From positions 1,934-65,933 of the forward strand of contig JAFCFS010000001.1 of NCBI GenBank assembly GCA_017608525.1: 64,000 nt of DNA, given 5' to 3'. How positions within the stretch are numbered: the stretch's first letter is position 1; every line of letters begins with the position of its first letter. Shown here piece after piece: positions 1-51,862 of this stretch. The notes beneath the pieces were generated by a model that saw only the letters and a program-made list of their open reading frames with translations, was not told the DNA's origin and searched no databases. Made by a program: the position numbers and the translations under genes. Source of the DNA: Candidatus Woesearchaeota archaeon (lineage in GTDB: Archaea; Nanobdellota; Nanobdellia; SCGC-AAA011-G17; GW2011-AR17).

Positions 1-361
1 CTATTGAAGTTCCAGATGACATGCTCCTTATATAAACCCCATCATCAAAAATATGATCCATCATCCTGATCCTGTCCCCAAGAATTGCTCCACCTGTAAA
101 TTGACTTGATGGATCGATTGCTATCACTCCAACTTTATTCCCCTCTTTCCGAAATTCCTTTATTACACAATTTATTAATGTACTCTTCCCGCTCCCTCCA
201 CTTCCTGTAAAGCCTATAATGTGAGATTCAATTTCTTTTCCTTTCTTTTTAAGCAGCTTGAGCAATTTTTTAGCCTGCCCTCTTTCAACATAAGTTATTG
301 CTCTTGCAATTGATTTTTTGTCAGCAGAAATAACACCATCGACAATTTCTTCGATTTTCAT
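1..361 (-). CDS. MeaB/ArgK-type P-loop GTPase (LAO/AO transport system ATPase family), N-terminal part; gene continues beyond window start
   Basis: Reverse-strand ATG at 361-359. Translation MKIEEIVDGVISADKKSIARAITYVERGQAKKLLKLL...GFTGSGGSGKSTLINCVIKEF...VIAIDPSSQFTGGAILGDRIRMM matches the MeaB/ArgK Walker A and DPSS-x-TGGxxLGD signature. No stop before coordinate 1. Confidence 0.6.
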   Translation of the reverse strand, partial: MKIEEIVDGVISADKKSIARAITYVERGQAKKLLKLLKKKGKEIESHIIGFTGSGGSGKSTLINCVIKEFRKEGNKVGVIAIDPSSQFTGGAILGDRIRMMDHIFDDGVYIRSMSSGTSI

Positions 362-435
362 AAAAGTTTTTGTAATCTAAAAATTTTTAAAATTATCGCA
401 AAATTTTTAAAAAATTAAGAAAGTTAAAAGCCAAT

Positions 436-1140
436 ATGTTACATGAGATTGTTTTAAAAATTGAAGAAGAAAACGGATTTTATGTTGATGAAAAATGCTA
501 TTCCATTGTAGAAGAATTTATTGAAGAAGCAAAAAAATTTCCTAGAGATAAAATACTAATAGGAATGCATTATTTAATCCATTCAAAATTCAATTTTTCA
601 CTAGATACCAAAATCGAGCTTTTTAGCGAGTGTCTCAGGAAAAGGAAATTTAATTGCAAACATAGCAGTTTACTTTACTTAGTTATTGCTGAAAAATTTA
701 ACTTACCAATCAAGAGTGTTTTTGTACCAAATCACGTTTTTGTCAGGTGGGAAGGTTCTTCGGTATTTAATTGGGAAACAACAAAAGGTGAAAAAAGAGA
801 CAATAAATATTACATAAAAAAATATAATATATCTAAAAACGCGATCAAAAATAGTGTGTATTTAAAAAGTCTAGAAGGAAAGGAGTTTATTTCTGCATTT
901 TATAATGTTGTTGGTATTCAAAACACTAAAATGAAAGAGTTTGAAAAGGCAAAGGAAAATTTTCAAAAAGCAATAGAATTGGTAAATAATTTTCCTGAAG
1001 CTTTATGGAATTATGCTTTGGCATCTAAGTATCTTGGTTGTTTTGATGAGGCTAAAGAAAAATTAGAATTCCTAATTAGCCTTGACACTCACTTAACAAA
1101 TCCAGCGAAAGAATTGCTTAAAAAATTAAAAAATAACTAG
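436..1140 (+). CDS. transglutaminase-like cysteine-protease-fold domain fused to TPR-like repeats; hypothetical
   Basis: Cys (NCKHSSLLYLVIAEKFNLP) then HVFVRWE, resembling a transglutaminase-like Cys/His core. The C-terminal half has TPR-like helices (EFEKAKENFQKAIEL, WNYALASKYLG). Confidence 0.45.
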   Translation: MLHEIVLKIEEENGFYVDEKCYSIVEEFIEEAKKFPRDKILIGMHYLIHSKFNFSLDTKIELFSECLRKRKFNCKHSSLLYLVIAEKFNLPIKSVFVPNHVFVRWEGSSVFNWETTKGEKRDNKYYIKKYNISKNAIKNSVYLKSLEGKEFISAFYNVVGIQNTKMKEFEKAKENFQKAIELVNNFPEALWNYALASKYLGCFDEAKEKLEFLISLDTHLTNPAKELLKKLKNN

Positions 1141-1646
1141 TCCCTTTTATATAGATGTGCATCCGATATTTCTTCAATTTTATGAACAAATGGTTGGATA
1201 AAAATTGCTCCTGCTGCAAAATTAACAAATGCCAATACATTTAAATTAAGCAGAGTTATTGCAATAATTGGCGGAAAGAATAAAAGAACTTCTATAAACA
1301 AAGATCTAAATTTTTTAAAGTTTGTTCCGTATTGAAGACCGTAAATAAATATAAAAGTAGAAGCCAATAGTGTAAAATCTAAAGAATGCCTTAAAAGAAG
1401 CATTAGTACACCAAAATATAAATACTCTTTTCTTATTGCATAACCAATTAACATGCCAATTATAAAAAAGGTATAGTTTGGGAGACTAACGTAAAGCATA
1501 AATAGGCCAAGAAATATGCATATGAAGTTTTTAAGAGCTAAGAAATATTTTTTTCCAGGCTCCATTTCTTCTTTACATATTTTTGAAAGAAAAAATCCTA
1601 CAAAAATTCCTAAAAATGCAACAAGTGGAACCAATATTTCTAGCAT
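1137..1646 (-). CDS. polytopic membrane protein, unknown function
   Basis: 169-aa ORF made almost entirely of hydrophobic segments, roughly 5 predicted TM helices. Confidence 0.4.
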   Translation of the reverse strand: MLEILVPLVAFLGIFVGFFLSKICKEEMEPGKKYFLALKNFICIFLGLFMLYVSLPNYTFFIIGMLIGYAIRKEYLYFGVLMLLLRHSLDFTLLASTFIFIYGLQYGTNFKKFRSLFIEVLLFFPPIIAITLLNLNVLAFVNFAAGAIFIQPFVHKIEEISDAHLYKRD

Positions 1647-1690
1647 ATTTTAATTTAATACTTTCTAATTTTATAATTTTTTGGAGAAAA

Positions 1691-1773
1691 GCCGACTGAG
1701 CTCAGAAACTGGAATTCCATAGGAATTCCGTGTCAGTGTCATTACAACACTGACGTTTCTGAGTTGCTCCGGC
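1691..1773. ncRNA. candidate structured RNA element: GC-rich three-way-junction hairpin in a divergent intergenic region
   Basis: GCCG-A-CTGAGCTCAGAAAC ... GTTTCTGAG-TT-GCTC-CGGC closes a long stem around two internal perfect hairpins (GGAATTCC-ATA-GGAATTCC and GTCAGTGT-CATTACA-ACACTGAC). It is much more GC-rich than the flanking AT-rich spacer. Confidence 0.3.
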
Positions 1774-2035
1774 TTATTTAATAGTAAATTTTAAACTTTA
1801 AATAGTTTACGTTAATTGGATTTCAAAAAAATTATATATTAAAAACTATTTTGTTTTAGTATGGAAGAAAACCCCTTAGTCAAATTGATGTTGGAAAAGG
1901 CAAAGAAAAAAGAGATTGCAAAACCATTTAACGTAAATAAGTACGAAAATGAAGAAAGAATAAAAGAATTTACTGAGAAGATAATAAGGGGGAAAAAAGA
2001 TAAAGTTTAAAAAAGAGAGCATTTTTCCCCTCCCT

Positions 2036-2341
2036 ATGAGCTCGCTAAAAAAGAAATTCGATTTGGCATTGAAGATAGTTAATGGTGAAATTGAAGACAA
2101 GGATTTTGCATTAGAAGAGTGTGTTAATTCTATAAAAAAGATTATTGAAGCTTGTGGAGATAAAGATTTAACAGTAAGATGCTGTTTTGAAAGCTGGAAA
2201 GAAGGCGGAAAAACATGGATTAAATGCGACAGCTATTGTGCTCCTGAAGATGAATTCAAAAAGATATGTAAAGAATGCTATAAAAAAATTGTTAAAGAAT
2301 TTCCGAAGATAGAGGAAGCCTATTTAAAATTGAAAAGATGA
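2036..2341 (+). CDS. small Cys-rich hypothetical protein
   Basis: 101-aa ORF with several Cys pairs (CGDKDL..RCCFESW..CDSYC..CKECY), suggesting a metal-binding small protein. Confidence 0.35.
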   Translation: MSSLKKKFDLALKIVNGEIEDKDFALEECVNSIKKIIEACGDKDLTVRCCFESWKEGGKTWIKCDSYCAPEDEFKKICKECYKKIVKEFPKIEEAYLKLKR

Positions 2342-3058
2342 TCCTCTAGATCTTGGAATTATTCCAGCTTTTTCCAATCTGGATTTAACATTGCCATAAA
2401 ATACTAGTTCTTCAATTTCAAAATTAGCAAAATCTTCTCTTATATTTTTTAGTTTATTTCTTAAATCTTCCAAATTTTTTTCGCTTGAGAAAGATACCAT
2501 AACTGCTGGATGACACGAAACATTGTATTTAGATAAATTTTCTAAAGCCCTCAGTTGGTAATTGAATGCTTCTGGCTTTGCACCAGTTAATTTGGAAAAT
2601 TCTTCTTTATTTGCGCCTTTAAGGGAAACCCTAACATGAAGATTCTCAAATTCGCTCAATCTTTTAGCAAATTTTTTATCATAACCTATCAAGATTCCGT
2701 TGGTTTCCAGAATAAATGTTTTCTTCATGTTTTTTAAGTTCTCCAATAATTTAATTAAATGCTCATCTCCCAATGTTGGTTCATTTCCAGACACCCTCAT
2801 ATTTTCGAAAGAATATTTTTTAGCAATTGATACCAGCCTTTTGGCAATTTCCTTAGGTGAATAAAATTTTCCATACTTTTTTGGATTATGGACAACATTC
2901 CATGCCCAACAAAATATGCAAGATAAGTTGCATCCAACAACGTCAGCTGTAGCTATTCCTCCATAAAATCTTGCAGGTCTTATCCTATAGTATTTCCTTT
3001 TTTCCCCTTCACAAACTATCTTTTTAATTTTTCTTGTTATTTCTATTGGATCAAACAT
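2324..3058 (-). CDS. radical SAM domain protein (QueE/activase-like small radical SAM enzyme)
   Basis: N-terminal CNLSCIFCW (Cx3Cx2C followed by an aromatic residue) after GGIATADVVGCNL, typical of radical SAM 4Fe-4S ligation. Length about 244 aa. Confidence 0.6.
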   Translation of the reverse strand: MFDPIEITRKIKKIVCEGEKRKYYRIRPARFYGGIATADVVGCNLSCIFCWAWNVVHNPKKYGKFYSPKEIAKRLVSIAKKYSFENMRVSGNEPTLGDEHLIKLLENLKNMKKTFILETNGILIGYDKKFAKRLSEFENLHVRVSLKGANKEEFSKLTGAKPEAFNYQLRALENLSKYNVSCHPAVMVSFSSEKNLEDLRNKLKNIREDFANFEIEELVFYGNVKSRLEKAGIIPRSRGSSFQF

Positions 3059-3113
3059 TTTTAAGATAAAATGAATTTTATATTATCTTTGCTGAAAAAA
3101 AATTTGATTTAAG

Positions 3114-3184
3114 TGCAGTAGCCGGGATTCGAACCCGGATTACAGGCTTGGGAAGCCTGTGTCCTGCCGTTGGACGACTACTGC
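3114..3184 (-). tRNA. tRNA-Gly(CCC)
   Basis: The reverse complement folds as a 71-nt cloverleaf: acceptor GCAGTAG/CTACTGC, D-arm GTCC-AACGGCA-GGAC, anticodon arm CAGGC-TTCCCAA-GCCTG (anticodon CCC), T-arm CCGGG-TTCGAAT-CCCGG. Confidence 0.85.
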
Positions 3185-3185
3185 A

Positions 3186-3494
3186 CTATTCCTTTAGTTT
3201 TTCTTTTAATTTTTTTCTGCTTTCCGCCTCTATTCTTCTTTTAGTATCTTCTTCCAAAACTTTCCTAATCAATCCGCTTATATCTCGAACTTTTTTCTCA
3301 TTTCCCAATTTTTTATAGCAGTCTTTCATTCGCATCAATGCTGCATAATTTTTAGGAAAGCTTTCTTTGTATAATTCATAAGCTGCTTTAGCCCTCTCAG
3401 CTGCATCTTCAAACCTATTTTTATCAAATAGCTCCTTAGATTCGTTCATATAGTGTTCGAACAATTTTTCTTTGTCTTTATTGTCTTTCTCCAT
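3186..3494 (-). CDS. small helical (TPR-like) hypothetical protein
   Basis: ORF ending immediately upstream of tRNA-Gly. The start is uncertain (M at 3527 or 3494). Contains AAERAKAAYELYKESFPKNYAALMRMKDCYKKLG helical repeat-like segments. Confidence 0.3.
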   Translation of the reverse strand: MEKDNKDKEKLFEHYMNESKELFDKNRFEDAAERAKAAYELYKESFPKNYAALMRMKDCYKKLGNEKKVRDISGLIRKVLEEDTKRRIEAESRKKLKEKLKE

Positions 3495-4245
3495 TTTCCC
3501 ACATTTGTTCGAATATTTGTTGTACATTGTATGCTAATCTTTTATCTTCTATAAATATTACGCCTCCAAACAAAATTGGATCCTCATAAGATAACTTTAA
3601 TAAAACTTTTTTTCTATCAATGATATCACATCTAATAAATGCTGTGTCCAATCTTCTTACTTGAAACAATTTTGGATATTTTTTGTTAAGCTTACTTAAT
3701 TTTCTAGGCAATATTGTATTTCTTGGATAAATTGCCCTAAAAACAACGCCCCTCTCAACTGCATTTTCTATTTCTTTTTCCCAAATAGTTTTACTTTTCC
3801 TATTTATTGTTGGCTTGTGGAAAATGTTTAAGACTTGGCATACTTCTTTTTCGGCTTCAAGAAATGATCTAAGTTGTATTTTTTCATTTTCTTCAAGGGT
3901 TGTGCCAATTTGAAAAAATCGAGTTTGCTTCTCTTTCTTAACCCTATCAATTTCGGTTGCTACCATCTTTATCTCAGAAATTATTTTTTCATATTCTTTC
4001 TGTTTCTCATTTATTAATTTAGCCAATGTTTCCGAAGCATTTCTTACAAAAACTTTTTTCGGCCTAGAATCGGTTTCTTGAACGAGTCCTTTTTTAACCA
4101 ATGCATTGACAATAGAGTAAACTTTTCCAAATGGAATCCCAGCTTTTTTGCTTAACTGTTTTAACGTAATCTCCTCTCTTAAAATAGTATTTAATGCTTT
4201 GCTTTCATAATACGTTAATCCTAAGTTTTTTAGTTCTTCTATCAT
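3478..4245 (-). CDS. TrmB-family transcriptional regulator
   Basis: N-terminal winged HTH (LGLTYYESKALNTILREEITLKQLSKKAGIPFGKVYSIVNALVKKGLV) typical of archaeal TrmB regulators, plus a C-terminal sensor-like domain. Divergently oriented to 4314-6096. Confidence 0.65.
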   Translation of the reverse strand: MIEELKNLGLTYYESKALNTILREEITLKQLSKKAGIPFGKVYSIVNALVKKGLVQETDSRPKKVFVRNASETLAKLINEKQKEYEKIISEIKMVATEIDRVKKEKQTRFFQIGTTLEENEKIQLRSFLEAEKEVCQVLNIFHKPTINRKSKTIWEKEIENAVERGVVFRAIYPRNTILPRKLSKLNKKYPKLFQVRRLDTAFIRCDIIDRKKVLLKLSYEDPILFGGVIFIEDKRLAYNVQQIFEQMWENGERQ

Positions 4246-4313
4246 TTTTCACCCTAAGTGAGAGTTAAAGTATAGAAAATATTTATAAAATTATCGCAAA
4301 TTGTTTAATTAAA

Positions 4314-4697
4314 ATGGCAACGAAAAATTCAACTTTTTATGTTGAACTGCTTTATTCTTATGATGGAATACCATTAGGAAAGGGGCATAAAAAAATAAAG
4401 AAATTATACAACGGAGGCGATTTAGTTACTAAAATTTTAAATTATTTCGGCGTAAATTTTTCAATCCAGCTTGCTTCAGATTTTTATTACAGAGAACCAA
4501 TTCTTCAATGTGTAAAAAAGGCGGACAAAAATGGAAAAGTTTACACTATCTACTCTAGGTATTCAGATTCGTATCCGTATACAATTGACGGATATGAAGT
4601 AATAGAATATTTAGAGATTTTTGGGGTTATTCCGTGCTCACCCGAAGAAGCAAAAAAATTACTAAATGGTGAAAGTAAAAATGGAAAAAACCAATAA
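4314..4697 (+). CDS. hypothetical protein
   Basis: 127-aa ORF, first gene of a two-gene unit divergent from the TrmB regulator. No recognisable motif. Confidence 0.35.
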   Translation: MATKNSTFYVELLYSYDGIPLGKGHKKIKKLYNGGDLVTKILNYFGVNFSIQLASDFYYREPILQCVKKADKNGKVYTIYSRYSDSYPYTIDGYEVIEYLEIFGVIPCSPEEAKKLLNGESKNGKNQ

Positions 4698-6096
4698 AGA
4701 TCCTTTGGAGATTGTCATTAAAAATCTTATAGAAAGTAATTACGGAACATATGAGCCCCAAAATTCTGAATTATGGCTAAAAATAGTTGGCCAAAATTGG
4801 AATGAAGCTAAAAAACATATAGCAAAAATGCTTTATGATGGGAAGGAAGTTTTTTGCATAAGTAAAATTCTTAAAAATCTCAAAAGAAAAATGAATTGTT
4901 GCTTTGACGAATCTGAAATGAGAGAAATTTACAATCACCTAATTCAAAAAAATGAAATTAATAAAGTTTCGTGGCTTTCTGAATACACTGAAATAAAACC
5001 TTCAGAAAGCCAATTAATGAATATTTGGAAAAAATTTTTTTCAGGATATTGGAATATTTACGAGCTGGAAGAATTGGAAAAGATATTTGGAAAACCAAAG
5101 CTAAGTCAAAAAGATGTAGATGAAATATGCAGCAAATACCTTAGAATATGGCTTGGTAAAGAAAAAACAGATACGGGAATGATGATTCAACCAAAGCAAG
5201 TTAAAAAGTTTATCGAAGAGGTTGGAATAAAACCTAGATGGGACAAAAAAACTGCTGAATTGGTCTACGATAGATGGTTAAGTCATGAAAATCTTATACT
5301 TTTCCTTCAAGAAGAAATTGGCATAAAACCGAATGAGGAAAAGGTACAAGAATACTACAGAAAATTACTTTCAGAAGATATAAGTACAGAATATATTATA
5401 GAAAAGTTAATAAAAGCCGTAAATGTAACAGGGATAATACCAAAAGAAGAATTCGTCGAAAATTTTTATAGAAAACATTTGGGTTATTCGAATGTAGAAG
5501 AAATCAAAAAAGTAGAAAAATTGACCAAAATAAAATGTGATGAAAAAATAGTAAATTTAGTATATTTAAAATTGCTGAAAAAGGGCGATATTGGAGGAAT
5601 TAATTTATTAAGAAATAAAACAAAAATAAAACCAAAATTTTTAGAGAAAGAGGTACAAGTTATTTACGAAAACTTGTTAAGAAATGGCGAAGTTAGAAAA
5701 GCGCTGCATGTTTATTTGTTTACAGAGATAGAACCAAATATCCTAAAAGAAATTGTTATTAAAGCATGCAATCAATTGTTGGTCAAAAAAGTTGATTTTG
5801 AAAATATAGAGCTTTTGGATTGGCTTTTAACGTACTTTGAAGAAGAAGTTACACCATTGCTCCAAGAACACATTTCAAAACTTATTGCCAATGAAAAGTT
5901 TCAAACAGCCGAATATTTGATTTCTAAACTGAATTTTAGATTAAAACCAGAAGAAAAATATGTAGTGCTTTGTAGAAAAGGAGAATGGGAAAAGGCAAAA
6001 AAACTTTACGAAGAATACAAGGATAAAATAAAAACAAAATACCCAGATTATGCAGGCTTAATGGATTTAATCGAGAAGACAGATAAATTTATTTAA
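4681..6096 (+). CDS. helical-repeat protein with ~9 tandem ~34-aa repeats beginning G/K-I-K-P
   Basis: Repeats such as GIKPRWDKKTAELVYDRWL, GIKPNEEKVQEYYRKLL, GIIPKEEFVENFYRKHL, KIKCDEKIVNLVYLKLL, KIKPKFLEKEVQVIYENLL and IEPNILKEIVIKACNQLL, with a TPR/PPR-like period. The start is taken at the internal Met (MEKTNK) to limit overlap. Confidence 0.5.
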   Translation: MEKTNKDPLEIVIKNLIESNYGTYEPQNSELWLKIVGQNWNEAKKHIAKMLYDGKEVFCISKILKNLKRKMNCCFDESEMREIYNHLIQKNEINKVSWLSEYTEIKPSESQLMNIWKKFFSGYWNIYELEELEKIFGKPKLSQKDVDEICSKYLRIWLGKEKTDTGMMIQPKQVKKFIEEVGIKPRWDKKTAELVYDRWLSHENLILFLQEEIGIKPNEEKVQEYYRKLLSEDISTEYIIEKLIKAVNVTGIIPKEEFVENFYRKHLGYSNVEEIKKVEKLTKIKCDEKIVNLVYLKLLKKGDIGGINLLRNKTKIKPKFLEKEVQVIYENLLRNGEVRKALHVYLFTEIEPNILKEIVIKACNQLLVKKVDFENIELLDWLLTYFEEEVTPLLQEHISKLIANEKFQTAEYLISKLNFRLKPEEKYVVLCRKGEWEKAKKLYEEYKDKIKTKYPDYAGLMDLIEKTDKFI

Positions 6097-6120
6097 ACTA
6101 AAGTTCTTATTAATTATGAA

Positions 6121-7398
6121 ATGGAGTTGCTATTGCCAAAAGGTACTAGAGATTTTAAGTTTAATGAAGAGATATTAAGGCAAAGAATAATAGCAACAAT
6201 AAAAAAGATTTTCGAACTCCATGGCTTTCTTCCTTTAGAAACGCCTATTTTAGAAAGGTTCGAAATATTAAAGGCAAAATATGCTGGTGGAGCAGAAATA
6301 CTCAAAGAGGTGTTTAAACTAAGAGACCAAGGAGGAAGAATTCTTGGTTTGAGGTATGATCTAACAGTGCCATTAGCTAGATTTATTGCAATTAATCCCA
6401 CTGTCAAGCTTCCTTTCAAAAGGTATCAATTTGGTCCTGTTTTTAGAGACGGGCCTATAAGAACAGGAAGGTACAGACAATTTTATCAGTTTGATGGAGA
6501 CATAATTGGTGTAAAAAATATTTTGGCAGAGGTTGAATTAATCAATATTGTAAAAGAAGTTTTCAAAACCCTTGGTATTGATGTTGTAGTAAAAGTGAAC
6601 AATAGAAAACTGCTCAGCTCGATTCTGAAATACAGTGGTGTGAAGGAAAAATACATTGAAAAAACGATTCTGGCTGTTGATAAGTTGGAGAAAATTGGAA
6701 AAAAAGGTGTTGAAAAAGAATTAAAAGCTATAGGTTTAGAAAACAGAGTAATAAAAAAATTATTTTGGTTTTTAAATAAAAAAGGGAAAGATTTAATTCG
6801 AATTCTTAAAGATTTAATGCCTGAAAATGAAGGACTAAAAGAAATTGACAGTTTGTTTAAGTACATAAAAGAAAAAGATGTCATATTTGATGCTTCTTTA
6901 GCAAGAGGTCTTGTTTATTACACAGGAACAATTTTTGAGGTGTTTGATAAGGAAGGTAGAATTAAAAGCAGTTTGGCAGCTGGTGGAAGATATGACGAAA
7001 TGATTGGAAAATTTGTACAAAAGAATATGGAATTCCCTGCTGTTGGCGTTTCTTTTGGGATTGATGTAATATTTGATTTGCTTAGGAAAAATTTACCAAA
7101 ATTAAGCATTGATGTTTTAGTTATACCAATAAAAGAGTATAAAGAAGCTTTAGAAATTGCAAAAAAATTGAGAAAAAATGGCATCAATACAGACTTTGCG
7201 CTTTCTGAAAGAAGTTTAAGCAAAAATTTGGAGTATGCAAATTCGTTAGGAATCCCTTACGTTATATTTGTCGGAAAGAAAGAACTTGAAAAAGGGAAGA
7301 TTAAATTAAAAAATATGCTTGATGGGGAAGAAAGGTTGATCACTTTGGAGAAAGCAATTAATATCTTAAAAAAGAATCGAAATATTTCTGGATCATAA
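6121..7398 (+). CDS. hisS: histidyl-tRNA synthetase
   Basis: Class II HisRS motifs: LPKGTRDF, GLRYDLTVPLAR, RYQFGPVFRDGPIRTGRYRQFYQFDGDIIG, AAGGRYD. Followed by a C-terminal anticodon-binding domain. Confidence 0.9.
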   Translation: MELLLPKGTRDFKFNEEILRQRIIATIKKIFELHGFLPLETPILERFEILKAKYAGGAEILKEVFKLRDQGGRILGLRYDLTVPLARFIAINPTVKLPFKRYQFGPVFRDGPIRTGRYRQFYQFDGDIIGVKNILAEVELINIVKEVFKTLGIDVVVKVNNRKLLSSILKYSGVKEKYIEKTILAVDKLEKIGKKGVEKELKAIGLENRVIKKLFWFLNKKGKDLIRILKDLMPENEGLKEIDSLFKYIKEKDVIFDASLARGLVYYTGTIFEVFDKEGRIKSSLAAGGRYDEMIGKFVQKNMEFPAVGVSFGIDVIFDLLRKNLPKLSIDVLVIPIKEYKEALEIAKKLRKNGINTDFALSERSLSKNLEYANSLGIPYVIFVGKKELEKGKIKLKNMLDGEERLITLEKAINILKKNRNISGS

Positions 7399-7436
7399 GG
7401 AAGAAAACATATTAAAAATATTTCTTTATCTTTCTC

Positions 7437-7445
7437 AGGAGGTGG
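7437..7445 (+). promoter_or_regulatory. Shine-Dalgarno-like ribosome-binding site (AGGAGGTGG) 6 nt upstream of TTG start at 7452
   Basis: Seen directly in the sequence. Confidence 0.5.
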
Positions 7446-7451
7446 ACAAAC

Positions 7452-7799
7452 TTGAAAAAGGGCTGTAAAGTTCTATCTTTTTTTGTTGCATGTAGTATAG
7501 CTATGGGTTTAGGAGACAAATTTGATGTACTAGATAAAATGTATTATCCAGTAAAATACAGAAAAATTAAGGTCGACAAAGATTGCTACCAAGAGCCTTT
7601 TAAAATAAAAAAGAAATACCTTGTGAATAAAGATGGTTTTCTCGAGGTTTATATTGGGGACGGAAAAAATTTTTACAAAGTTAAGAAGGGGTTTAGAGTA
7701 AATGAAAGGAGTTTTGAAGAGATTCTAAAAGAGGAAATAAAAAAGATTGTGAAGAAAGGAAAGAGCTGGTACAAATTTATCGAAGAGATTCTTGATTAG
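7452..7799 (+). CDS. small exported/lipoprotein-like hypothetical protein
   Basis: TTG start with a strong RBS. N-terminal hydrophobic signal-like segment with Cys (LSFFVACSIAMG). Confidence 0.4.
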   Translation: MKKGCKVLSFFVACSIAMGLGDKFDVLDKMYYPVKYRKIKVDKDCYQEPFKIKKKYLVNKDGFLEVYIGDGKNFYKVKKGFRVNERSFEEILKEEIKKIVKKGKSWYKFIEEILD

Positions 7800-7804
7800 G
7801 AGGT
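7798..7804 (+). promoter_or_regulatory. Shine-Dalgarno-like RBS (AGGAGGT) 4 nt upstream of ATG 7809
   Basis: Seen directly in the sequence. Confidence 0.5.
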
Positions 7805-7808
7805 AAAT

Positions 7809-8729
7809 ATGGGAAACATAATTGAGGAAACACTTTTATTTGACAAAGAAAACGAGCCTAATTATATAAAATTGAGAAAACAGGTAGAAAATTTAATAAT
7901 CTACCAAAGACAAATCGAAAAGAGAATCAAAAAGATAGGAAAATGGAGCACGGGTTTTAGGTTCAAAAAATTTGTTTACGAAAAAATTTTTAGGAGAAAA
8001 CAGTATACTCTTGAAGAATTGTTTAATATACAATTGGCAAATATAGGCTGTCTTAATGCTAATCTAAAAAGTATAATTTTGAGGTCAAGGAAGGAATTGG
8101 AAAGGATAGAGAAGTATCATTCTAAACTAGATGATGAATTAATATCAAATTTAAGAAACGTAAAGACTGAGAAAAATAATTTGGAAAGCAAAATCAACGA
8201 TTACAAAGTTATGAAAGAATCTATTTCGGCAATGAAAAGGAATGAGGATTACTTTAAAAAAGAAAAGGAGTTAAAAAATTTAAAAAGAAACATCAGCGAA
8301 AAACTTCATTACTACAATTTAAAAAGTGAATCTATAGTGGACATAATAAATGAAAGAAGATTCTTGGAAAAAATTGAAGACCTAATGAGGCTCTCTATCC
8401 AAATGTGTGAAAGAATTGGTGCTAAAGTAGAAAGAATGGAAAGGCATGTAAATAATACAAAAAGAGCATATGATTCCTTTAAAAAACAGCAGATAACAAT
8501 TTCTTCCTTATGTGAAGCTGTTTATACATTGAGAGAGTTTACCATCCAAATACACAAAATGCTTGGAGAAGGCCTTTCAACTATAGCTAAAATTGCAAAC
8601 GAGAGCAAAATGGAAGATTTTTATTCTATTAATGAATCGAGGGTTGAAAATATAATTAAAGAAATAATTGAAGCGAACAAAGTTAAAAATAAAAAAATTG
8701 AAGAAGCAATTAAGGAGTATATTACTTAA
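7809..8729 (+). CDS. coiled-coil hypothetical protein
   Basis: 306-aa Lys/Glu-rich heptad-like sequence. Translationally coupled to 7452-7799. Confidence 0.45.
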   Translation: MGNIIEETLLFDKENEPNYIKLRKQVENLIIYQRQIEKRIKKIGKWSTGFRFKKFVYEKIFRRKQYTLEELFNIQLANIGCLNANLKSIILRSRKELERIEKYHSKLDDELISNLRNVKTEKNNLESKINDYKVMKESISAMKRNEDYFKKEKELKNLKRNISEKLHYYNLKSESIVDIINERRFLEKIEDLMRLSIQMCERIGAKVERMERHVNNTKRAYDSFKKQQITISSLCEAVYTLREFTIQIHKMLGEGLSTIAKIANESKMEDFYSINESRVENIIKEIIEANKVKNKKIEEAIKEYIT

Positions 8730-9216
8730 TTTTTTTTCTTTTTTCGTATTCCTCTTTCATCCTTATTAAATCCCCTATTGTTAATGTCGTGCTTTTGAAA
8801 TCTATCTTCTTCTTTAACGGTTCTTCCTTATACTCTGTAATTAAATTTATTCTCAAAAAGTGTTCAAGTTTTCTTGCAAGTTCTATCGTTGGTACCATAG
8901 TGCCTGCTTCCAATTTATGTATTACAGACTCTTTTTCTCCAATCGCTTTTCCAAGTTTTTCCTGTGTTAACTCCATTTTTTCCCTCGCTTCTTTAATTCT
9001 CTTTGGGTAATCTGGAACAATAGTCTCTATCGGTTCTTCAAAGACATTGCTCTCCGTTAATTTTATCCTCTTTGTAACTTCATTAACTTCTTTTTTTGGC
9101 TCTTCCACTATTTTGCCGTATTTTGAACAGAATTTGCATACTTTAAGAAAAACACCCTCTACAAGAATTTTGAATAGTTTATCAGATTTTCTACCACACA
9201 TCTCACAAATCGGCAT
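8722..9216 (-). CDS. archaeal multiprotein-bridging factor 1 (aMBF1): N-terminal zinc ribbon plus Cro/C1-type HTH
   Basis: MPICEMCGRK...CKFCSKYG (two CxxC pairs) followed by ELTQEKLGKAIGEKESVIHKLEAG (XRE-type HTH). Size about 164 aa. Confidence 0.65.
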   Translation of the reverse strand: MPICEMCGRKSDKLFKILVEGVFLKVCKFCSKYGKIVEEPKKEVNEVTKRIKLTESNVFEEPIETIVPDYPKRIKEAREKMELTQEKLGKAIGEKESVIHKLEAGTMVPTIELARKLEHFLRINLITEYKEEPLKKKIDFKSTTLTIGDLIRMKEEYEKRKKIK

Positions 9217-9314
9217 AAAAAATTAAATTACAACAAATTTTTTAAATTTTTTTACATTTCTGAAATTGAAAAAATTTTTAAGCCCTATTATTAATTTATT
9301 TATTTGGTGATAGT

Positions 9315-9947
9315 TTGAAACATGTTATTATTTTTTGTGCCCATTCTGATGATGAAGCTGTTGGAATGGGTGGAACAATTCAAAAGTTTGTTGATGAAGG
9401 ATTTAACATTGTAAAGATCGTTTTTTCTTTTGGAGAAGCAAGCCATCCTCATTTAAAAGAAAAATTAATTATTAAAAAAAGGGTTTTTGAAAGTGAAAAA
9501 ATTGCTGAAAAGTTTGGAATTAAAAAGACAATATTTTTGGGTTTGACAGACGGTAAAATTAAAGAAGAAGTTGAGAAATACAACATTAAAGACAAAATTA
9601 AAAAACTCATCAGAAAGTACAGGCCAATTAAAATTTTTGTTCCTTCTGAAAATGACCCCCATCCCGATCATAAGGCAGTAAATAAAATTGTTCTTTTGGC
9701 AATAGACGAATTAAAAAAACATTACGAAGTTTACAGCTATGAGGTTTGGAATTTAGTTAAAGAAGAAAAACCAACGATGTATGTTGATATAAGCAGATAT
9801 ATGGGTAAAAAATTGGAGTTTATGAAAAGTTTTGAAAGCCAGAAACATTTTATTTGGGTTCTTCTTCTACCAGTTATAATAAGAGGAAAAATTTACGGAT
9901 TTAAAAATGGCTGTAGATATGCAGAAAAATTTTATAAATTAAGGTGA
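9315..9947 (+). CDS. PIG-L/LmbE-family deacetylase
   Basis: N-terminal AHSDDEAVGMGGT (the HxDDE zinc-binding motif of LmbE-like N-acetylglucosaminyl deacetylases). TTG start as in the ORF track. Confidence 0.6.
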   Translation: MKHVIIFCAHSDDEAVGMGGTIQKFVDEGFNIVKIVFSFGEASHPHLKEKLIIKKRVFESEKIAEKFGIKKTIFLGLTDGKIKEEVEKYNIKDKIKKLIRKYRPIKIFVPSENDPHPDHKAVNKIVLLAIDELKKHYEVYSYEVWNLVKEEKPTMYVDISRYMGKKLEFMKSFESQKHFIWVLLLPVIIRGKIYGFKNGCRYAEKFYKLR

Positions 9948-10871
9948 TATTTCAAGAAAAACTTTGTAATCTAAGTCTATTTCTTCCCCAATAGCTGATG
10001 AAACAGCTTTTTTGATATTTTTCGGGGCCTTATAACCAAGCAGTTTAGTTAGGTCAACCGCTATATGTCCTTTTTCAACGAACTCTTTTCTTAATTTTTC
10101 TGCAAGCCTATTTATTTTTTCCACTTTTTTCCTTGTTTCTTTAAAGCATTTTTGGTAGTATAGGCATTTGTGTTTAAATTTGCTATCTTCTCTGCTTTTT
10201 AATTTGGCATTTATTAAATCTTTACATTTCCCATCAAATATGCATGATGGGCCTGCATTTTCAAATATCTTAGGGGAAACAATTTTTACAGCTAATAATT
10301 GAGTATAAGCCAGCATATTAATTTCCCATTGTGCATTCTGGCAGCATCTCAAATAGAAGAAGTTTTGAAGAAGCTCCCTTGCGTTCATTTTGCAAACTAT
10401 ATTTGTTTTTACGCCAATTGGAAGTATTGTTCTTGCATCCTCTTCATTCAAACCAAGTTCTATTGCCTCTCTATATAAATCGAATGCCTCCTTCTGTTGC
10501 TTTATATATTTTATTATCAATCCCAGATTTTTACTCTCGATCAATTTTGGTGGAACAATAAAATTGTATCCTTTTGGTTTAACGCTCCTCAAACTTTGTT
10601 GTAAATAAGAAGCGATTCTGTGCCTTACGTATTGATGAGTTAACTGCCTACTAACACCCTCAACAGAAAAAATAAATTCTCCAAATTCAAATGGACTCAT
10701 ATGTCCAACATTTAACAACTCTTCTATAGTTTTTTCTAAATTTTTTTGAGTAAAATTTTTCTTGAATAATTCTGCAGCACTTTTTTCACTCTTACATGAC
10801 TTAGTAGCACTTACAATATATTTTTCCATATCTTCCGTATAATAAAGAAGGGCAACTTTTATTTTAATCAC
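9939..10871 (-). CDS. thyX: flavin-dependent thymidylate synthase ThyX (with C-terminal extension)
   Basis: ThyX signature RHRIASYLQQS (RHRx7S) and the downstream ARTILPIGVKTNIVCKMNARELLQNFFYLRCCQNAQWEI block. Confidence 0.75.
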   Translation of the reverse strand: MIKIKVALLYYTEDMEKYIVSATKSCKSEKSAAELFKKNFTQKNLEKTIEELLNVGHMSPFEFGEFIFSVEGVSRQLTHQYVRHRIASYLQQSLRSVKPKGYNFIVPPKLIESKNLGLIIKYIKQQKEAFDLYREAIELGLNEEDARTILPIGVKTNIVCKMNARELLQNFFYLRCCQNAQWEINMLAYTQLLAVKIVSPKIFENAGPSCIFDGKCKDLINAKLKSREDSKFKHKCLYYQKCFKETRKKVEKINRLAEKLRKEFVEKGHIAVDLTKLLGYKAPKNIKKAVSSAIGEEIDLDYKVFLEISP

Positions 10872-11257
10872 CTCACAGATACTATTATTTTTCTCGATCT
10901 TGGTCCATCCAGTTCAACTAGAGCGATGCTTTGCCAAGTACCGAGAAGTAATTTTCCATTTTTAATAGGTACTGTTTCAGACGGACCGAGAATTGCTGCT
11001 TTGATGTGAGCTGCACCATTGTTATCAATTTTATCGTGTTCCCAAATACCTTCAGGAATCAATTTAGATAGTGCATTTAATATATCAGATCTCACATTTG
11101 GATCATAATTCTCGTTGATAATGATTGCTGCAGTTGCGTGTGGTACATATATAGTAACATTGCCTTCTTTCACATCTTTAACAATGTCCTCTATCTCGTT
11201 AGTTATATCAACAATTTCGTATTTTTTATTAGTTTTAATTGTTATTTCCTTTTGCAT
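10868..11257 (-). CDS. YjbQ/UPF0047 family protein (secondary thiamine-phosphate synthase-like fold)
   Basis: 129 aa. VPHATAAIIINENYDPNVRSDI ... AAHIKAAILGPSETVPIKNGKLLLGTWQSIALVELDGPRSR matches the conserved UPF0047 pattern. Confidence 0.6.
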   Translation of the reverse strand: MQKEITIKTNKKYEIVDITNEIEDIVKDVKEGNVTIYVPHATAAIIINENYDPNVRSDILNALSKLIPEGIWEHDKIDNNGAAHIKAAILGPSETVPIKNGKLLLGTWQSIALVELDGPRSRKIIVSVR

Positions 11258-13080
11258 ACTTCCACCCTTACTGCTGCTTTTTTCAAATTTGGTTCATAAA
11301 CCACTGGTGAAAATTCAATCGGTATTAATTTGTTAACAAGTATATTTCTATAATGATAAGGAACTATTATTAAATTTTTTGGAACTTTTTTACTTAGCCT
11401 CACATTTGCTTTAATTTTTCCAACTCTAGAAACAAGACATATTAATTCACCATCTTCTAAACCAATTTCTTTACCATTCTCCTCACTAATAAAACATTCC
11501 GGATGGGAAATCTCTCTCAATTTTTTAGAAGACACGCTCATGTCGCTTGTACAAAATTGATAGGGTCTTCTTGCAGTTGAGAGAATAAAAGGATAATCTT
11601 TAGATGTTGGTTCTTCAAAACCTTCGAACTCAGCAACATGATACTTTTTAAACCTAATCACTCTTTCAACAAATTGACTTTCCCCTTTTATCAATTTTTC
11701 AATGTTAATTTTGTTATAGCCCACAACATTTTTGATGATATCTTTGGTTATGCTTAAAGTATTTGTATAATTATAATGCTTACCTACATATTTTGCAAAT
11801 TCCTTTAAAATAACCCAGTTTGGTTTCGAATCAAACAATGGATTAATTGCGTTTTTAAAATACCTAACTCTACTTTCTGCACTTGTAAATGTTCCGTCTA
11901 CTTCTGCAAAACTGGAACTTGGTAGAACAACATCAGAAAATTCCATTGTTAAATTTTTGTAGCTACATTGAAGAACAATAAATGCCTTCCTAAAAACCTT
12001 ATGAACTTTATTCAAATCCGGCATCGATTGTGCTGGATTTGTCTCAAGAATCCAAAATGCTTTAGAAGGATAAAGAAAGACAGACTCTATAATAGTGTTT
12101 CCATTTTTTCCAGGAACGAGACCCATATCTTGAACACCTTGTATATTTGCCTTCCCCCTCATTGGAATTATTTTACCATTTTTTGCTATTACTAAATTTG
12201 CTGCTGAAAAAACATTTTCTACACCATAGGTATGTTGTGTTAAGACCATCCCATACATCAAACAAAAATTTTTACTTTTCTCTATTTCGTCAACGACTTT
12301 TCTAAAATCGTTTTTTTTAATTCTGCACAACTCACAAACGTATTTTTCTGTGTATTTCATTAAGAATTCAGAAATTTTTTCTTCCACTTTAACATTATTT
12401 CTCAACACCAACTCATTCAAAATGCCATTTAAAAAGATAATATGCGAGCCAGGATAAATTTTAACAAAAATATCAGCATATTCTGTAGTCTCGTCTTCTG
12501 TTTGTTTTACACAAATTATCTTGCAACCCTTCTTTTTTGCATCCAGAATTTTATTAAATGCGACTGGATAATTAGATTTTGGATTCGAGCCTGTTATAAG
12601 AATACAATCAGCATTTTTTATGTCTTTAAGCATCGCATGCGGCATTGCACTAATCCCAAAAGCCTCTTTAAGAGCATAACATGTTGAAGCATGACATAAC
12701 CTTGCACAACTGTCAATATTCTCAGTTTTGTAGATTTCGCGTGCAACTTTTTGAAAAAGAAATGCATCCTCATTTGTTGCTGGGCTTGAACCATAGAAAG
12801 TTATATCACTGGGATCAAACTTTTCCAAATTTTTAGCTATAAATTCAAATGCTTCTTCCCAATTTACTTCTCTCAATTTTCCATTTTTTCTCACCATTGG
12901 CTTTTTAATTCTGTTTTTAGAGTAAATTACTTCGTGAACAGTTAATCCCTTAATGCACGGTTTTCCCTCACTTACAGGATCATCTTTCACCGGCAAAGCA
13001 GAAATTATTTTCCCTTTTTCTATTTTTAAGTATAAAGCACAACCACAACCACAGTATGGACAAATTATTTTCTTAATCAT
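11242..13080 (-). CDS. molybdopterin (bis-MGD) oxidoreductase, formate dehydrogenase alpha-like, Cys-type
   Basis: N-terminal 4Fe-4S motif CPYCGCGCALYL...GKPCIKG. Putative active-site region CARLCHAST (Cys in place of Sec, no in-frame TGA). C-terminal molybdopterin-binding-like beta domain. Confidence 0.7.
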   Translation of the reverse strand: MIKKIICPYCGCGCALYLKIEKGKIISALPVKDDPVSEGKPCIKGLTVHEVIYSKNRIKKPMVRKNGKLREVNWEEAFEFIAKNLEKFDPSDITFYGSSPATNEDAFLFQKVAREIYKTENIDSCARLCHASTCYALKEAFGISAMPHAMLKDIKNADCILITGSNPKSNYPVAFNKILDAKKKGCKIICVKQTEDETTEYADIFVKIYPGSHIIFLNGILNELVLRNNVKVEEKISEFLMKYTEKYVCELCRIKKNDFRKVVDEIEKSKNFCLMYGMVLTQHTYGVENVFSAANLVIAKNGKIIPMRGKANIQGVQDMGLVPGKNGNTIIESVFLYPSKAFWILETNPAQSMPDLNKVHKVFRKAFIVLQCSYKNLTMEFSDVVLPSSSFAEVDGTFTSAESRVRYFKNAINPLFDSKPNWVILKEFAKYVGKHYNYTNTLSITKDIIKNVVGYNKINIEKLIKGESQFVERVIRFKKYHVAEFEGFEEPTSKDYPFILSTARRPYQFCTSDMSVSSKKLREISHPECFISEENGKEIGLEDGELICLVSRVGKIKANVRLSKKVPKNLIIVPYHYRNILVNKLIPIEFSPVVYEPNLKKAAVRVEVCKRK

Positions 13081-22175: not shown

Positions 22176-22583
22176 ATGGAATGCGTATTCTGCAAAATAG
22201 CAAATAAGGAAGTACCTGCAGAAATTGTTTACGAAGATGAAAATGTAATTGCTTTTTTGGACATTAGTCCTGCAGCAAAAGGTCATACACTAGTAGTACC
22301 GAAAGAACATTTTGAAGATTTAACAAATGTTCCTGAAGAAATAGTTTCAAAAGTAATCAGAGTTGTAAAGAGGGTAACAAAAGCTTTGAAAAGTTTTAAC
22401 GACGGAGTAAATGTATTGCAGAATAACGGAAAAGCAGCTGGACAATTAATTCCTCACATTCATTTCCATATCATACCCAGAAAAGAAAATGACAACTTGG
22501 AAATAGCAAAATGGAAAGCAAACAATTACGACAACGATGAAGAGATGAAAGCTATTGCAAAGATGATAAAAGAAAATTTATAA
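22176..22583 (+). CDS. HIT-family (histidine triad) hydrolase
   Basis: HIHFHIIPR histidine-triad motif. 135 aa. Confidence 0.75.
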   Translation: MECVFCKIANKEVPAEIVYEDENVIAFLDISPAAKGHTLVVPKEHFEDLTNVPEEIVSKVIRVVKRVTKALKSFNDGVNVLQNNGKAAGQLIPHIHFHIIPRKENDNLEIAKWKANNYDNDEEMKAIAKMIKENL

Positions 22584-37373: not shown

Positions 37374-37389
37374 AAATCTTCTTAAAAAT

Positions 37390-37472
37390 GGGCCTATGAT
37401 GTAACGGATAGCATGCACGGCTTCGGATGCAGAAGAAACCGTGTCGTGGAGGTTCGAATCCTCCTAGGCCCA
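37390..37472 (+). tRNA. tRNA-Arg(TCG) with 11-nt intron at canonical position 37/38
   Basis: Acceptor GGGCCTA/TAGGCCC, D-arm ATGT-AACGGATA-GCAT, anticodon stem CACGG, loop CTTCGG^[ATGCAGAAGAA]^A, CCGTG, T-arm GGAGG-TTCGAAT-CCTCC. Loop residues CTTC pair with intron GAAG, giving a bulge-helix-bulge-like splice motif. Confidence 0.65.
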
Positions 37473-37510
37473 TCAAAAACATTTTAAATTTCTAAAATTA
37501 TATTTTTATT

Positions 37511-50321: not shown

Positions 50322-50452
50322 GGGCCCGTAGCTTAGCCTGGTGGAGCATCGGTCTTATATGGCACCATCGGCAACAGCCTAAGAGAGCCGAGGGTCAAGG
50401 GAAGACTCCAGCTCTTGCTGAAGTCTCTTGAATTCAAATCCCTTCGGGCCCA
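50322..50452 (+). tRNA. candidate tRNA-Ile(TAT) carrying two introns (26-nt at 37/38 and ~31-nt in the T-arm at 53/54)
   Basis: Exons assemble to a 74-nt cloverleaf: GGGCCCG-TA-GCTT-AGCCTGGTG-GAGC-A-TCGGT-CTTATA[intron]A-GCCGA-GGGTC-AAGGG[intron]TTCAAAT-CCCTT-CGGGCCC-A. Loop CTTA pairs with intron TAAG (BHB-like). The T-arm intron carries its own hairpin (GACTCCAGC/GCTGAAGTC). Confidence 0.5.
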
Positions 50453-51862
50453 CTATTTTTTAATTTTTTCAACATATTCTTCTATCTTCAACAATTTTGG
50501 TTTTTTGGCCTTCGCTCTTATAAATAAAATTACTAAGAAAACAACTAGTAGGATAATTACCACTACAATTGTTCTTAATATTTTTTTCTTTTTTTCCTCT
50601 CTTAATTCTTCTTTTGGTGTTTTGGTTTCTGTATAATTCACAATAACTACCTCCTTTTCCTTAGAAATATTTAATTCAACCAATTCTGTTTTATTTTTAA
50701 CTTCTTCTGCAACGTTAGTGAAAAGAAAAGACATTGGAAATTCTATCCTTCCTTCTTTACTGGAAACAATCAGATTTCCATAGTATAGTTTTCCAGGAAT
50801 TGCGTTCTTATCTTCGTTAACTACAATATTGAGGCTAGTTGTTTCGTAAGGTTGCAGTACATTGATTGTTTTTTTGTCTATTTTTACAATTTCATTAAGA
50901 TTACCATCTAACTTAATAGAAATCTGGTTTATTGGGTATTCTCCATCGTTTTTGAATTTAATTTCGCCAATGAAAATTTTGTTAACTGGAGCTCTTTTAC
51001 TTAATGATTTATTTTTCATCAAAAATTTAAGTTTAAATTCTTTCTCAACTATTTCGCAAGGTCCACAAACTCCACCACAATCAACACCCTCTTCACCCTC
51101 ATCCTTTACACCATTATTACAACAATCGTCAATTGCTTCGCATGGTCCACCACAATCAACACCTCTCTCACCTTGGTTTTTAATTCCATCGTTGCATGTT
51201 GGAGCTTCTTTCTCCTCTTTTTTAATGATTACTGGAATTTCGTAAAATTTGTTTCCGTAATTTAAAATGACACTCGTTTCTTTTACAGTTATATTTTTTA
51301 CATCAACTGAGAAATATACATTTAGTGAAGAAAGTGGTTCTATTATTAAACTCTCTCTAAATGGCCTAATTGCATCCTCGTTTGATTTTGGTTTTACTTC
51401 GGTTTTGTTGAGGCCCTTATTGCTTAATTTTATGGCGAAAGTTTTCGTGTCTTCCGTTACAAATACAATTGAAGGTTTTATACACAAGTATGGTTCCTCA
51501 TTTTTTATTGTAAAATTTTTATAAAAAGAAAATGTCTTTAGCGTTGCATTTATTCTTTTTTTATAAGAGATCACAATACTACAATCGCTCTCCTCAAGCT
51601 CTGGTAATTCAAAAGATAAAAAATACGTGTTATTCTTTAGATGAAAAATTAAAAGACCAATATCTATTTTTGTTTCGTTACAAATCAATTTTACATTCTC
51701 TGGTGTAAGTAAAATTTCTGAATAAACCCAAAATTGAACACTTTCGTATTCTGAATAAGTATCTCTTTCTATTTTAATTGTGTCTTCACCATAAACGAAA
51801 GGAAAGAGAAAAACAAACAACAAAAATATACAAAATAATTTACTTTCTTTGAAAAATTTCAT
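50453..51862 (-). CDS. secreted/surface protein with Cys-rich modules and C-terminal TM anchor
   Basis: N-terminal signal (LFCIFLLFVFLFPFVYG), a C-terminal TM (ILRTIVVVIILLVVFLVILFI), and an internal module PTCNDGIKNQGERGVDCGGPCEAIDDCCNNGVKDEGEEGVDCGGVCGPCE shared with the next gene. Confidence 0.5.
   Translation of the reverse strand: MKFFKESKLFCIFLLFVFLFPFVYGEDTIKIERDTYSEYESVQFWVYSEILLTPENVKLICNETKIDIGLLIFHLKNNTYFLSFELPELEESDCSIVISYKKRINATLKTFSFYKNFTIKNEEPYLCIKPSIVFVTEDTKTFAIKLSNKGLNKTEVKPKSNEDAIRPFRESLIIEPLSSLNVYFSVDVKNITVKETSVILNYGNKFYEIPVIIKKEEKEAPTCNDGIKNQGERGVDCGGPCEAIDDCCNNGVKDEGEEGVDCGGVCGPCEIVEKEFKLKFLMKNKSLSKRAPVNKIFIGEIKFKNDGEYPINQISIKLDGNLNEIVKIDKKTINVLQPYETTSLNIVVNEDKNAIPGKLYYGNLIVSSKEGRIEFPMSFLFTNVAEEVKNKTELVELNISKEKEVVIVNYTETKTPKEELREEKKKKILRTIVVVIILLVVFLVILFIRAKAKKPKLLKIEEYVEKIKK
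51053..51204. repeat. 152-bp direct repeat copy A (97% identical to 52393-52544)
   Basis: Aligned by eye, with 4 mismatches. Encodes the shared 50-aa Cys-rich module in the two adjacent paralogous surface-protein genes. Confidence 0.85.

Follow-up and report, generated by a model that had tools for sequence, protein, structure and literature searches.

A structured GC-rich element with a bulge-helix-bulge stem, a candidate small-RNA gene in Candidatus Woesearchaeota

Our data indicate that an 83-nt GC-rich element at positions 1691-1773 of the window (i.e., the whole 64,000-nt stretch of DNA analyzed here) is a real feature, far beyond chance, and that it is highly structured, single-copy, and lineage-specific. 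Most likely, it is a minus-strand RNA gene. We tentatively propose, as a reading that falls somewhat short of probable, that the element is an independent small-RNA gene whose closing stem, a bulge-helix-bulge (BHB), would be cut by the tRNA-splicing endonuclease EndA to give a 68-nt, probably circular, RNA. Among the candidate identities named in a preliminary description of this DNA, a small structured non-coding RNA is the one we favor, on account of its tRNA-like GC island, its promoter spacing, a T-run that follows it, and its fit to one slot of the size of a transcription unit.

Direct reading of the sequence confirmed where the element lies and that both of its inner hairpins are exact. 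These are GGAATTCC-ATA-GGAATTCC at 1711-1729 and GTCAGTGT-CATTACA-ACACTGAC at 1732-1754; as minus-strand RNA, the latter (hairpin A) has 8 bp and the loop UGUAAUG, while the former (hairpin B) has 8 bp and the loop UAU. The GC excess noted previously is real as well, with 49% GC in the element compared with 11 and 13% in the flanking spacers, 31% in the window as a whole, and 55-63% in its tRNAs. A GC-rich island is said, after work by Klein, Misulovin and Eddy in 2002, to be the classical mark of structural-RNA genes in AT-rich thermophiles. RNAfold gave a nested three-way junction on either strand (-45.2 kcal/mol for the plus strand and -44.2 kcal/mol for the minus strand), with a z-score of -7.6 on either strand and a stability matched by none of 200 dinucleotide-preserving shuffles. 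All 34 of its 34 pairs are Watson-Crick pairs, with no G-U pair among them. The outer stem that had been described exists, but not in the register first given to it; it is better read as helices of 4-6 bp, 4 bp, and 8 bp with two staggered 3-nt bulges between them.

We scored promoters with a position weight matrix (PWM) trained on 26 leaderless genes of the window, from which both genes flanking the element were left out. Nearly all genes of the window are leaderless, with an A-run plus a TTTAAAAA-like box that ends 22-23 nt before the ATG (for example at 9216, 24741, 32976, and 62395 on the minus strand and at 22176 and 34208 on the plus strand). Between 1640 and 1870 only three good sites were found. 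The first, at 1825-1838 on the plus strand (score 13.1), lies 22 nt before the ATG at 1861 of a 49-aa ORF, and the second, at 1683-1670 on the minus strand (score 13.2), lies 23 nt before the ATG at 1646 of a membrane-protein gene (1646-1137) and bounds the element on its downstream side. The third, the BRE/TATA-like sequence GTAAACTATTTAAA at 1810-1797 on the minus strand, stands back-to-back with the promoter of the 49-aa ORF and has a moderate score of 9.2, which is equalled or exceeded at more than 87 sites in the window (87 sites at a threshold of 10 and 229 at 8). It ends 23 nt before G1773, the first minus-strand base of the element, and 22-23 nt is the modal distance from promoter to start among the leaderless genes of this organism. 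No plus-strand promoter site upstream of the element was found in the same scan. In three of the five tRNA genes (tRNA-His, tRNA-Met, and tRNA-Ile), the box stops 25-26 nt short of the mature 5' end, and in the remaining two, tRNA-Gly and the tRNA at 37389, the highest-scoring site stops 18-19 nt short of it; these spacings indicate that tRNA leaders are short or absent.

On the other side of the element, directly after the stem, a T-run (UUUU in the minus-strand RNA, 1690-1687) is a candidate archaeal termination signal, and a weak one, as the plus-strand flank is also T-rich (TTATTT) and four T's make a weak archaeal terminator. Together, promoter spacing and T-run predict a primary transcript of approximately 87 nt, 5'-GCCGGAGCAAC...GAGCUCAGUCGGCUUUU-3', from 1773 to 1687 on the minus strand. 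A scan of 1400-2100 for bacterial-type terminators (a GC-rich, short-looped hairpin and then 5 or more T within 8 bases) returned none. Neither strand has a gene end close to the element; the least distant is that of a minus-strand radical-SAM ORF whose stop lies at 2324, approximately 550 nt upstream. The element had been placed in a divergent promoter region between genes at 1137-1646 (minus strand) and 2036-2341 (plus strand). The minus-strand gene and the divergence itself hold, but the nearest plus-strand gene is the 49-aa ORF at 1861-2010, and three promoters are present rather than those of a simple single pair. Since the membrane-protein gene has its own strong promoter between the element and its ATG, the element appears to be a separate unit. 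With three promoters found, the spacer is fully accounted for as three units, and one of these, a minus-strand slot that runs from promoter to T-run, is taken up by the element. The 49-aa ORF is among the best promoter matches of the region and is an annotated gene in JGI and ENA assemblies, without homologues; the 101-aa ORF that follows it is cysteine-rich and also an orphan.

We found that the two breaks in the outer stem, when read as minus-strand RNA, make up the canonical archaeal hBHBh' motif, i.e., a 3-nt bulge, a 4-bp helix, and a 3-nt bulge. Its 5' strand reads GCCG-GAGC-aac-UCAGAAAC and its 3' strand GUUUCUGA-GCUC-agu-CGGC, with the bulges on opposite strands. In the outer helix h, GCCG (1770-1773) pairs with CGGC (1691-1694), and two further A-U pairs (1774-1775 with 1689-1690) extend it provided that those bases are transcribed; in the central helix H, GAGC (1766-1769) pairs with GCUC (1698-1701); in the inner helix h', UCAGAAAC (1755-1762) pairs with GUUUCUGA (1702-1709). 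The motif calls for flanking helices of at least 2 bp, and here they have 4-6 bp (outer) and 8 bp (inner), all Watson-Crick. Each bulge (AAC at 1763-1765 and AGU at 1695-1697) follows its own strand of the central helix on the 3' side, which is the handedness of genuine introns, and the plus strand carries only the mirror image of the motif. A scan for BHB geometry on both strands of the window ranked the element first (score 46, runner-up 37) and also recovered the genuine intron at position 37/38 of tRNA-Ile(UAU), which has the same handedness and follows the same cut rule. In this intron (UCGGU-CUUA-uau-GGC / GCC-UAAG-aga-GCCGA) the numbering of the anticodon loop places the cuts between the second and third bases of the bulges. 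Applied to the element, the rule predicts cuts at AA/C, between 1764 and 1763, and at AG/U, between 1696 and 1695 (the slash marks the cut), which would excise 68 nt from 1763 to 1696. The excised RNA refolds into three arms in linear as well as circular folds, and the joined ends would give GCCGGAGCAAUCGGC plus U's, i.e., a 15-nt hairpin with a U-tail.

The window is part of a cellular archaeal chromosome and encodes both PheRS subunits (alpha and beta), GluRS, and a LonB-related protease, along with a TrmB-family regulator and an oxidoreductase that resembles formate dehydrogenase. Introns interrupt two of the five tRNA genes present, and the organism must therefore have EndA and a ligase. 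One is tRNA-Ile(UAU), at 50322-50452 on the plus strand, whose canonical BHB intron at 37/38 was recovered by the BHB scan at 50349-50391 and is placed at about 50359-50384. The gene was missed by ARAGORN and reached only 34.6 bits with the Rfam tRNA model; by eye, it has a second insertion of approximately 31 nt between T-stem position 53 and the T loop, a non-canonical intron position that suggests a splicing endonuclease of broad specificity. The other, at 37389-37474 on the plus strand, was called differently depending on the tool setting, as Pro(CGG) without the intron option and as SeC(UCA) with an 11-nt intron with it. Read by eye, it shows the same BHB geometry (CACGG-CUUC-gga-UGCA-GAAG-aaa-CCGUG), and this reading implies a tRNA-Arg(UCG) with an 11-nt intron at 37/38. 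Elsewhere in the window, a 152-nt direct repeat (51053-51204 and 52393-52544, 97% identical) is accompanied by shorter related copies at 51141-51199, 52247-52305, and 52481-52539. The repeats lie inside two adjacent large minus-strand ORFs (50453-51862 and 51859-53679), the latter of which has a weak squalene-cyclase-like repeat match; they are relatively GC-rich and are probably paralogous domain repeats.

We hypothesize that the element is a small-RNA gene with its own processing stem, a model that rests on one sequence. Transcription would start at about G1773 from the BRE/TATA promoter at 1810-1797 and end at the T-run at 1690-1687, and the 5' and 3' ends of the transcript of approximately 87 nt would pair, with the canonical hBHBh' as the closing stem. 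EndA would then cut each bulge after its second base, and RtcB, the tRNA ligase, would seal the ends into a three-armed, probably circular, 68-nt RNA (1763 to 1696), while the end pieces of 10 nt and approximately 9 nt might be discarded or joined into a mini-hairpin. In minus-strand RNA, the predicted circle junction is GAGCUCAG/CUCAGAAAC (as k-mers, UUUCUGAGCUCAG/CUCAGAAACGUC), the predicted junction of the joined ends is GCCGGAGCAA/UCGGCUUUU, and the unprocessed 5' end would read GCCGGAGCAACUCAG. With loops of 3, 5-7, and 7 nt and almost every base paired, the product might serve as a stable protein-binding or scaffold RNA, although this role is a guess. A bolder form of the proposal, which we regard as possible and hold with some doubt, is that the element is a dedicated circular-RNA gene that runs from promoter to terminator, has no host tRNA, rRNA, or mRNA, and has the sole purpose of presenting a minimal BHB stem to the splicing machinery and so producing a small, very stable circular RNA, its cargo belonging to no recognized class of RNA.

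The BHB motif on its own is only modestly beyond chance, since a score of 46 was reached in 3 of 60 simulated first-order Markov windows. The case is raised because independent indicators of strand agree, namely the handedness of the motif, the promoter spacing, the T-run (weakly), and the sole natural variant, at position 1726 in hairpin B, which changes an A-U pair to G-U on the minus-strand RNA and would leave A-C on the plus-strand RNA. The alternative that survives best, though we consider it unlikely, is that the same linear RNA of approximately 87 nt with its three-way junction is made and stays uncut, and that the BHB-like interruption is an internal loop that arose by coincidence. Such an RNA would be favored to the same degree by the GC island, the promoter spacing, and the T-run. 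Furthermore, its minimum free energy (MFE) structure has a 5x5 internal loop in place of the BHB, and when the 5+5 loop bases were randomized within the same stem, 1.7-8.8% of trials formed a correctly oriented BHB by chance. Archaeal EndA, however, cleaves minimal BHB substrates whatever their context, and cleavage would be expected of an RNA that is indeed made and that visits the BHB conformer, which lies 1.9 kcal/mol above the MFE. The motif is also strictly canonical (3-4-3, all Watson-Crick) and is found on the same strand as the promoter, which argues for a processed RNA.

We asked whether the element belongs to a known RNA family or class. The preliminary description had recommended a comparison with Rfam; at gathering thresholds, with the window as linear sequence and Rfam 15, the element matched no family, and at E values of up to 10 the region 1600-1900 gave only chance-level matches (SNORD58 with 12.6 bits and E = 8.8; poplar-1 and CRISPR-DR55 with E = 3.1). 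Its statement that hallmarks of tRNA, C/D-box, and H/ACA RNAs are lacking is correct by ARAGORN, Rfam models, and reading by eye. A tRNA or permuted tRNA was rejected, as ARAGORN and the Rfam tRNA model were silent at 1691-1773 and the circle has 68 nt (less than approximately 72) and only three arms. A C/D-box sRNA was rejected too, with the chance-level SNORD58 match alone in its favor, no UGAUGA, and would-be guide regions that are fully paired. By eye, there is no tandem of 5'-GA/3'-AG beside a 3-nt bulge as in a k-turn, and neither a hammerhead core nor an H/ACA structure fits. A BHB intron in the strict sense does not fit either, since no tRNA or rRNA host surrounds the element and the joined ends amount to the 15-nt hairpin with its U-tail. 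Restriction-site avoidance was set aside, as the window contains GAATTC and GAGCTC as often as expected, and so was a replication origin, given that the resemblance of the CATTACA loop to a CRESS-like nonanucleotide or of the element to an ORB box is partial and no Rep or Orc1 gene lies nearby.

We found no second copy of the element. A repeat search of the window gave none, a covariance model built from the element (R1) found only the element itself in the window and nine related loci, and three scans of viral collections as well as blastn searches of phage and plasmid collections were negative. A pattern scan of metagenomes anchored on both halves of the BHB returned one unrelated GC-rich chance match (1663-1730 of locus L016, contig LSQX01085380.1), which is no homologue. 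The genes that flank the element are orphans. The membrane protein and a TPR protein, compared with 5.8 billion proteins, matched the same species only. The radical-SAM protein had one relative of 91% identity, on a contig (L017) that stops before the element, and then none above 62%; among contigs of the genome collections, the same search gave at most 61% identity and no neighbors or synteny in common. The contigs that do cover the element are identical to it or differ by one base (the variant at 1726, in locus L009), are all at least 99% identical across it, and come from one species, so that they offer no covariation and no measure of conservation. Samples in which this genome occurs are JGI 3300033150, 3300014911, and 3300021472 as well as ENA ERZ27248349 and its relatives. 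In the metagenome JGI 3300033150, the element-side contig (L009, compared with window positions 1-2281) has 99.6% DNA identity, whereas on the adjoining contig (L017, compared with 2324-12000) the radical-SAM protein has only 91%, and the break falls inside the 101-aa ORF. This difference points to mosaic divergence or a recombination boundary approximately 0.5 kb from the element.

A set of 34 out of 34 Watson-Crick pairs without any G-U is unusual for an old functional RNA and fits a DNA palindrome or a young foldback equally well. It is improbable, in our view, that the element acts as DNA, with nested palindromes that serve as sites for dimeric regulators of the neighboring promoters. A palindromic operator, one of the candidates of the preliminary description, does fit the perfect two-fold symmetry. 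Both GGAATTCC and CTGAGCTCAG are palindromic by themselves, and the candidate sites would include a pair of GGAATTCC boxes separated by 11 bp as well as GTCAGTGT-N7-ACACTGAC. The membrane-protein gene, moreover, has its promoter 8 bp downstream of the element, and the gene of the TrmB-family regulator is 1.7 kb away. An operator leaves the nesting, the GC enrichment, and the bulge geometry unexplained, however, as it needs neither an outer stem of 18 bp around two palindromes nor staggered 3-4-3 bulges, and 49% GC within a spacer of 11-13% GC is not required of it. Furthermore, the element exactly fills a promoter-to-terminator slot, and the words of the candidate sites are not over-represented elsewhere in the window.

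We give an equally low probability to the idea that the element is a non-functional or selfish foldback, i.e., a young palindromic insertion, a mobile-element remnant, or an orphan BHB-type intron that is neutral in one lineage. Its presence in one species only is in keeping with this, and its perfect pairing suggests a recent origin. In addition, three independent metagenome contigs break 20-35 nt from the edges of the element (L010 and L011 end at 1656 and L013 starts at 1793), which could reflect a presence/absence polymorphism in the population; the breaks are equally explained by the trouble that hairpins cause in de Bruijn graphs, and either account may hold. On the other hand, the element is single-copy in the window, the related loci, and the metagenome, viral, phage, and plasmid collections, which speaks against the remnant of a mini inverted-repeat element that had been suggested, and the element lacks a target-site duplication as well as terminal inverted repeats other than the stem itself, with no transposase in the neighborhood. 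Least probable of all, and in our judgment very doubtful, is that the membrane-protein mRNA (1646-1137, minus strand) has a long 5' leader from which the element is removed as a BHB intron to tune expression. This reading has a precedent in HVO_1309 (PMC7714728), and the element precedes the ATG by 45 nt on the strand of the gene, with a weak T4 that may permit read-through, but the promoter of the gene lies between element and ATG at the 23-nt leaderless spacing, nearly all genes of the window are leaderless, and an in-frame TAA two codons before the ATG rules out splicing that would extend the ORF.

If a processed small-RNA gene is the correct reading, it would show that archaea use their tRNA-splicing machinery as a general means of producing small RNAs, and the element would be a compact natural cassette for circular RNA that consists of a promoter, approximately 10 nt, the cargo, approximately 9 nt, and a T-run. 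If it is not, the element would be a palindrome or an orphan structured RNA that is confined to a single uncultured lineage and of local interest only. BHB cleavage followed by circularization is established outside tRNA and rRNA (PMC4731332, PMC7714728). Confirmed archaeal EndA substrates beyond tRNA and rRNA are very few and consist of the cbf5 mRNA, a single 5' UTR in Haloferax, and the permuted Thermoproteus SRP RNA. A stand-alone BHB small-RNA gene is not among the entries of recent surveys of circular RNAs (PMC12558985, PMC3326292).

One close comparison is with the BHB introns of archaeal pre-tRNAs, such as that of tRNA-Ile(UAU) in this window, with which the element shares the hBHBh' geometry, the handedness, and the predicted cuts, and whose enzymes would act on it as well. 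In contrast to these introns, the element is without a tRNA, its "exons" have approximately 10 and 9 nt, the excised part would be the product, and the hairpin of the joined ends has a 7-nt loop, GAGCAAU, without U33. The logic of the processing stem is common to archaeal 16S and 23S pre-rRNAs, in which a BHB forms in the helix of the flanking sequences and EndA and a ligase release and circularize what lies inside (PMC7714728, PMC12558985); there the cargo is 1.5-3 kb of rRNA, whereas the element would have a non-rRNA cargo of 68 nt and a promoter of its own. In Thermoproteus, the termini of the SRP RNA are processed by the splicing endonuclease (PMC4731332). The circular permuted SRP RNA of T. 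tenax is recognizable, has approximately 300 nt, and has a known function and partners, while the element matches no family and is too small for a permuted known RNA.

Two further substrates lie inside mRNAs. The intron in the 5' UTR of HVO_1309 in Haloferax volcanii has 46 nt, is circular, and has had its cleavage confirmed in vitro, and the cbf5 mRNA of Crenarchaeota is another BHB substrate that is neither tRNA nor rRNA (PMC7714728). The element differs from both in that it looks like a separate unit, the downstream gene having its own promoter. With the Hgc RNAs of AT-rich hyperthermophiles, the element shares the signature of an isolated, GC-rich, structured island in an AT-rich spacer, but it has no Rfam match to HgcC, HgcE, HgcF, HgcG, or any other family. 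Metazoan tricRNAs are likewise stable circular RNAs from the tRNA-splicing machinery (PMC4536317), although they are by-products of real tRNA genes and the element has no host tRNA. Overall, the BHB reading of the element is a new variation on a known principle of processing that is both specific and testable.
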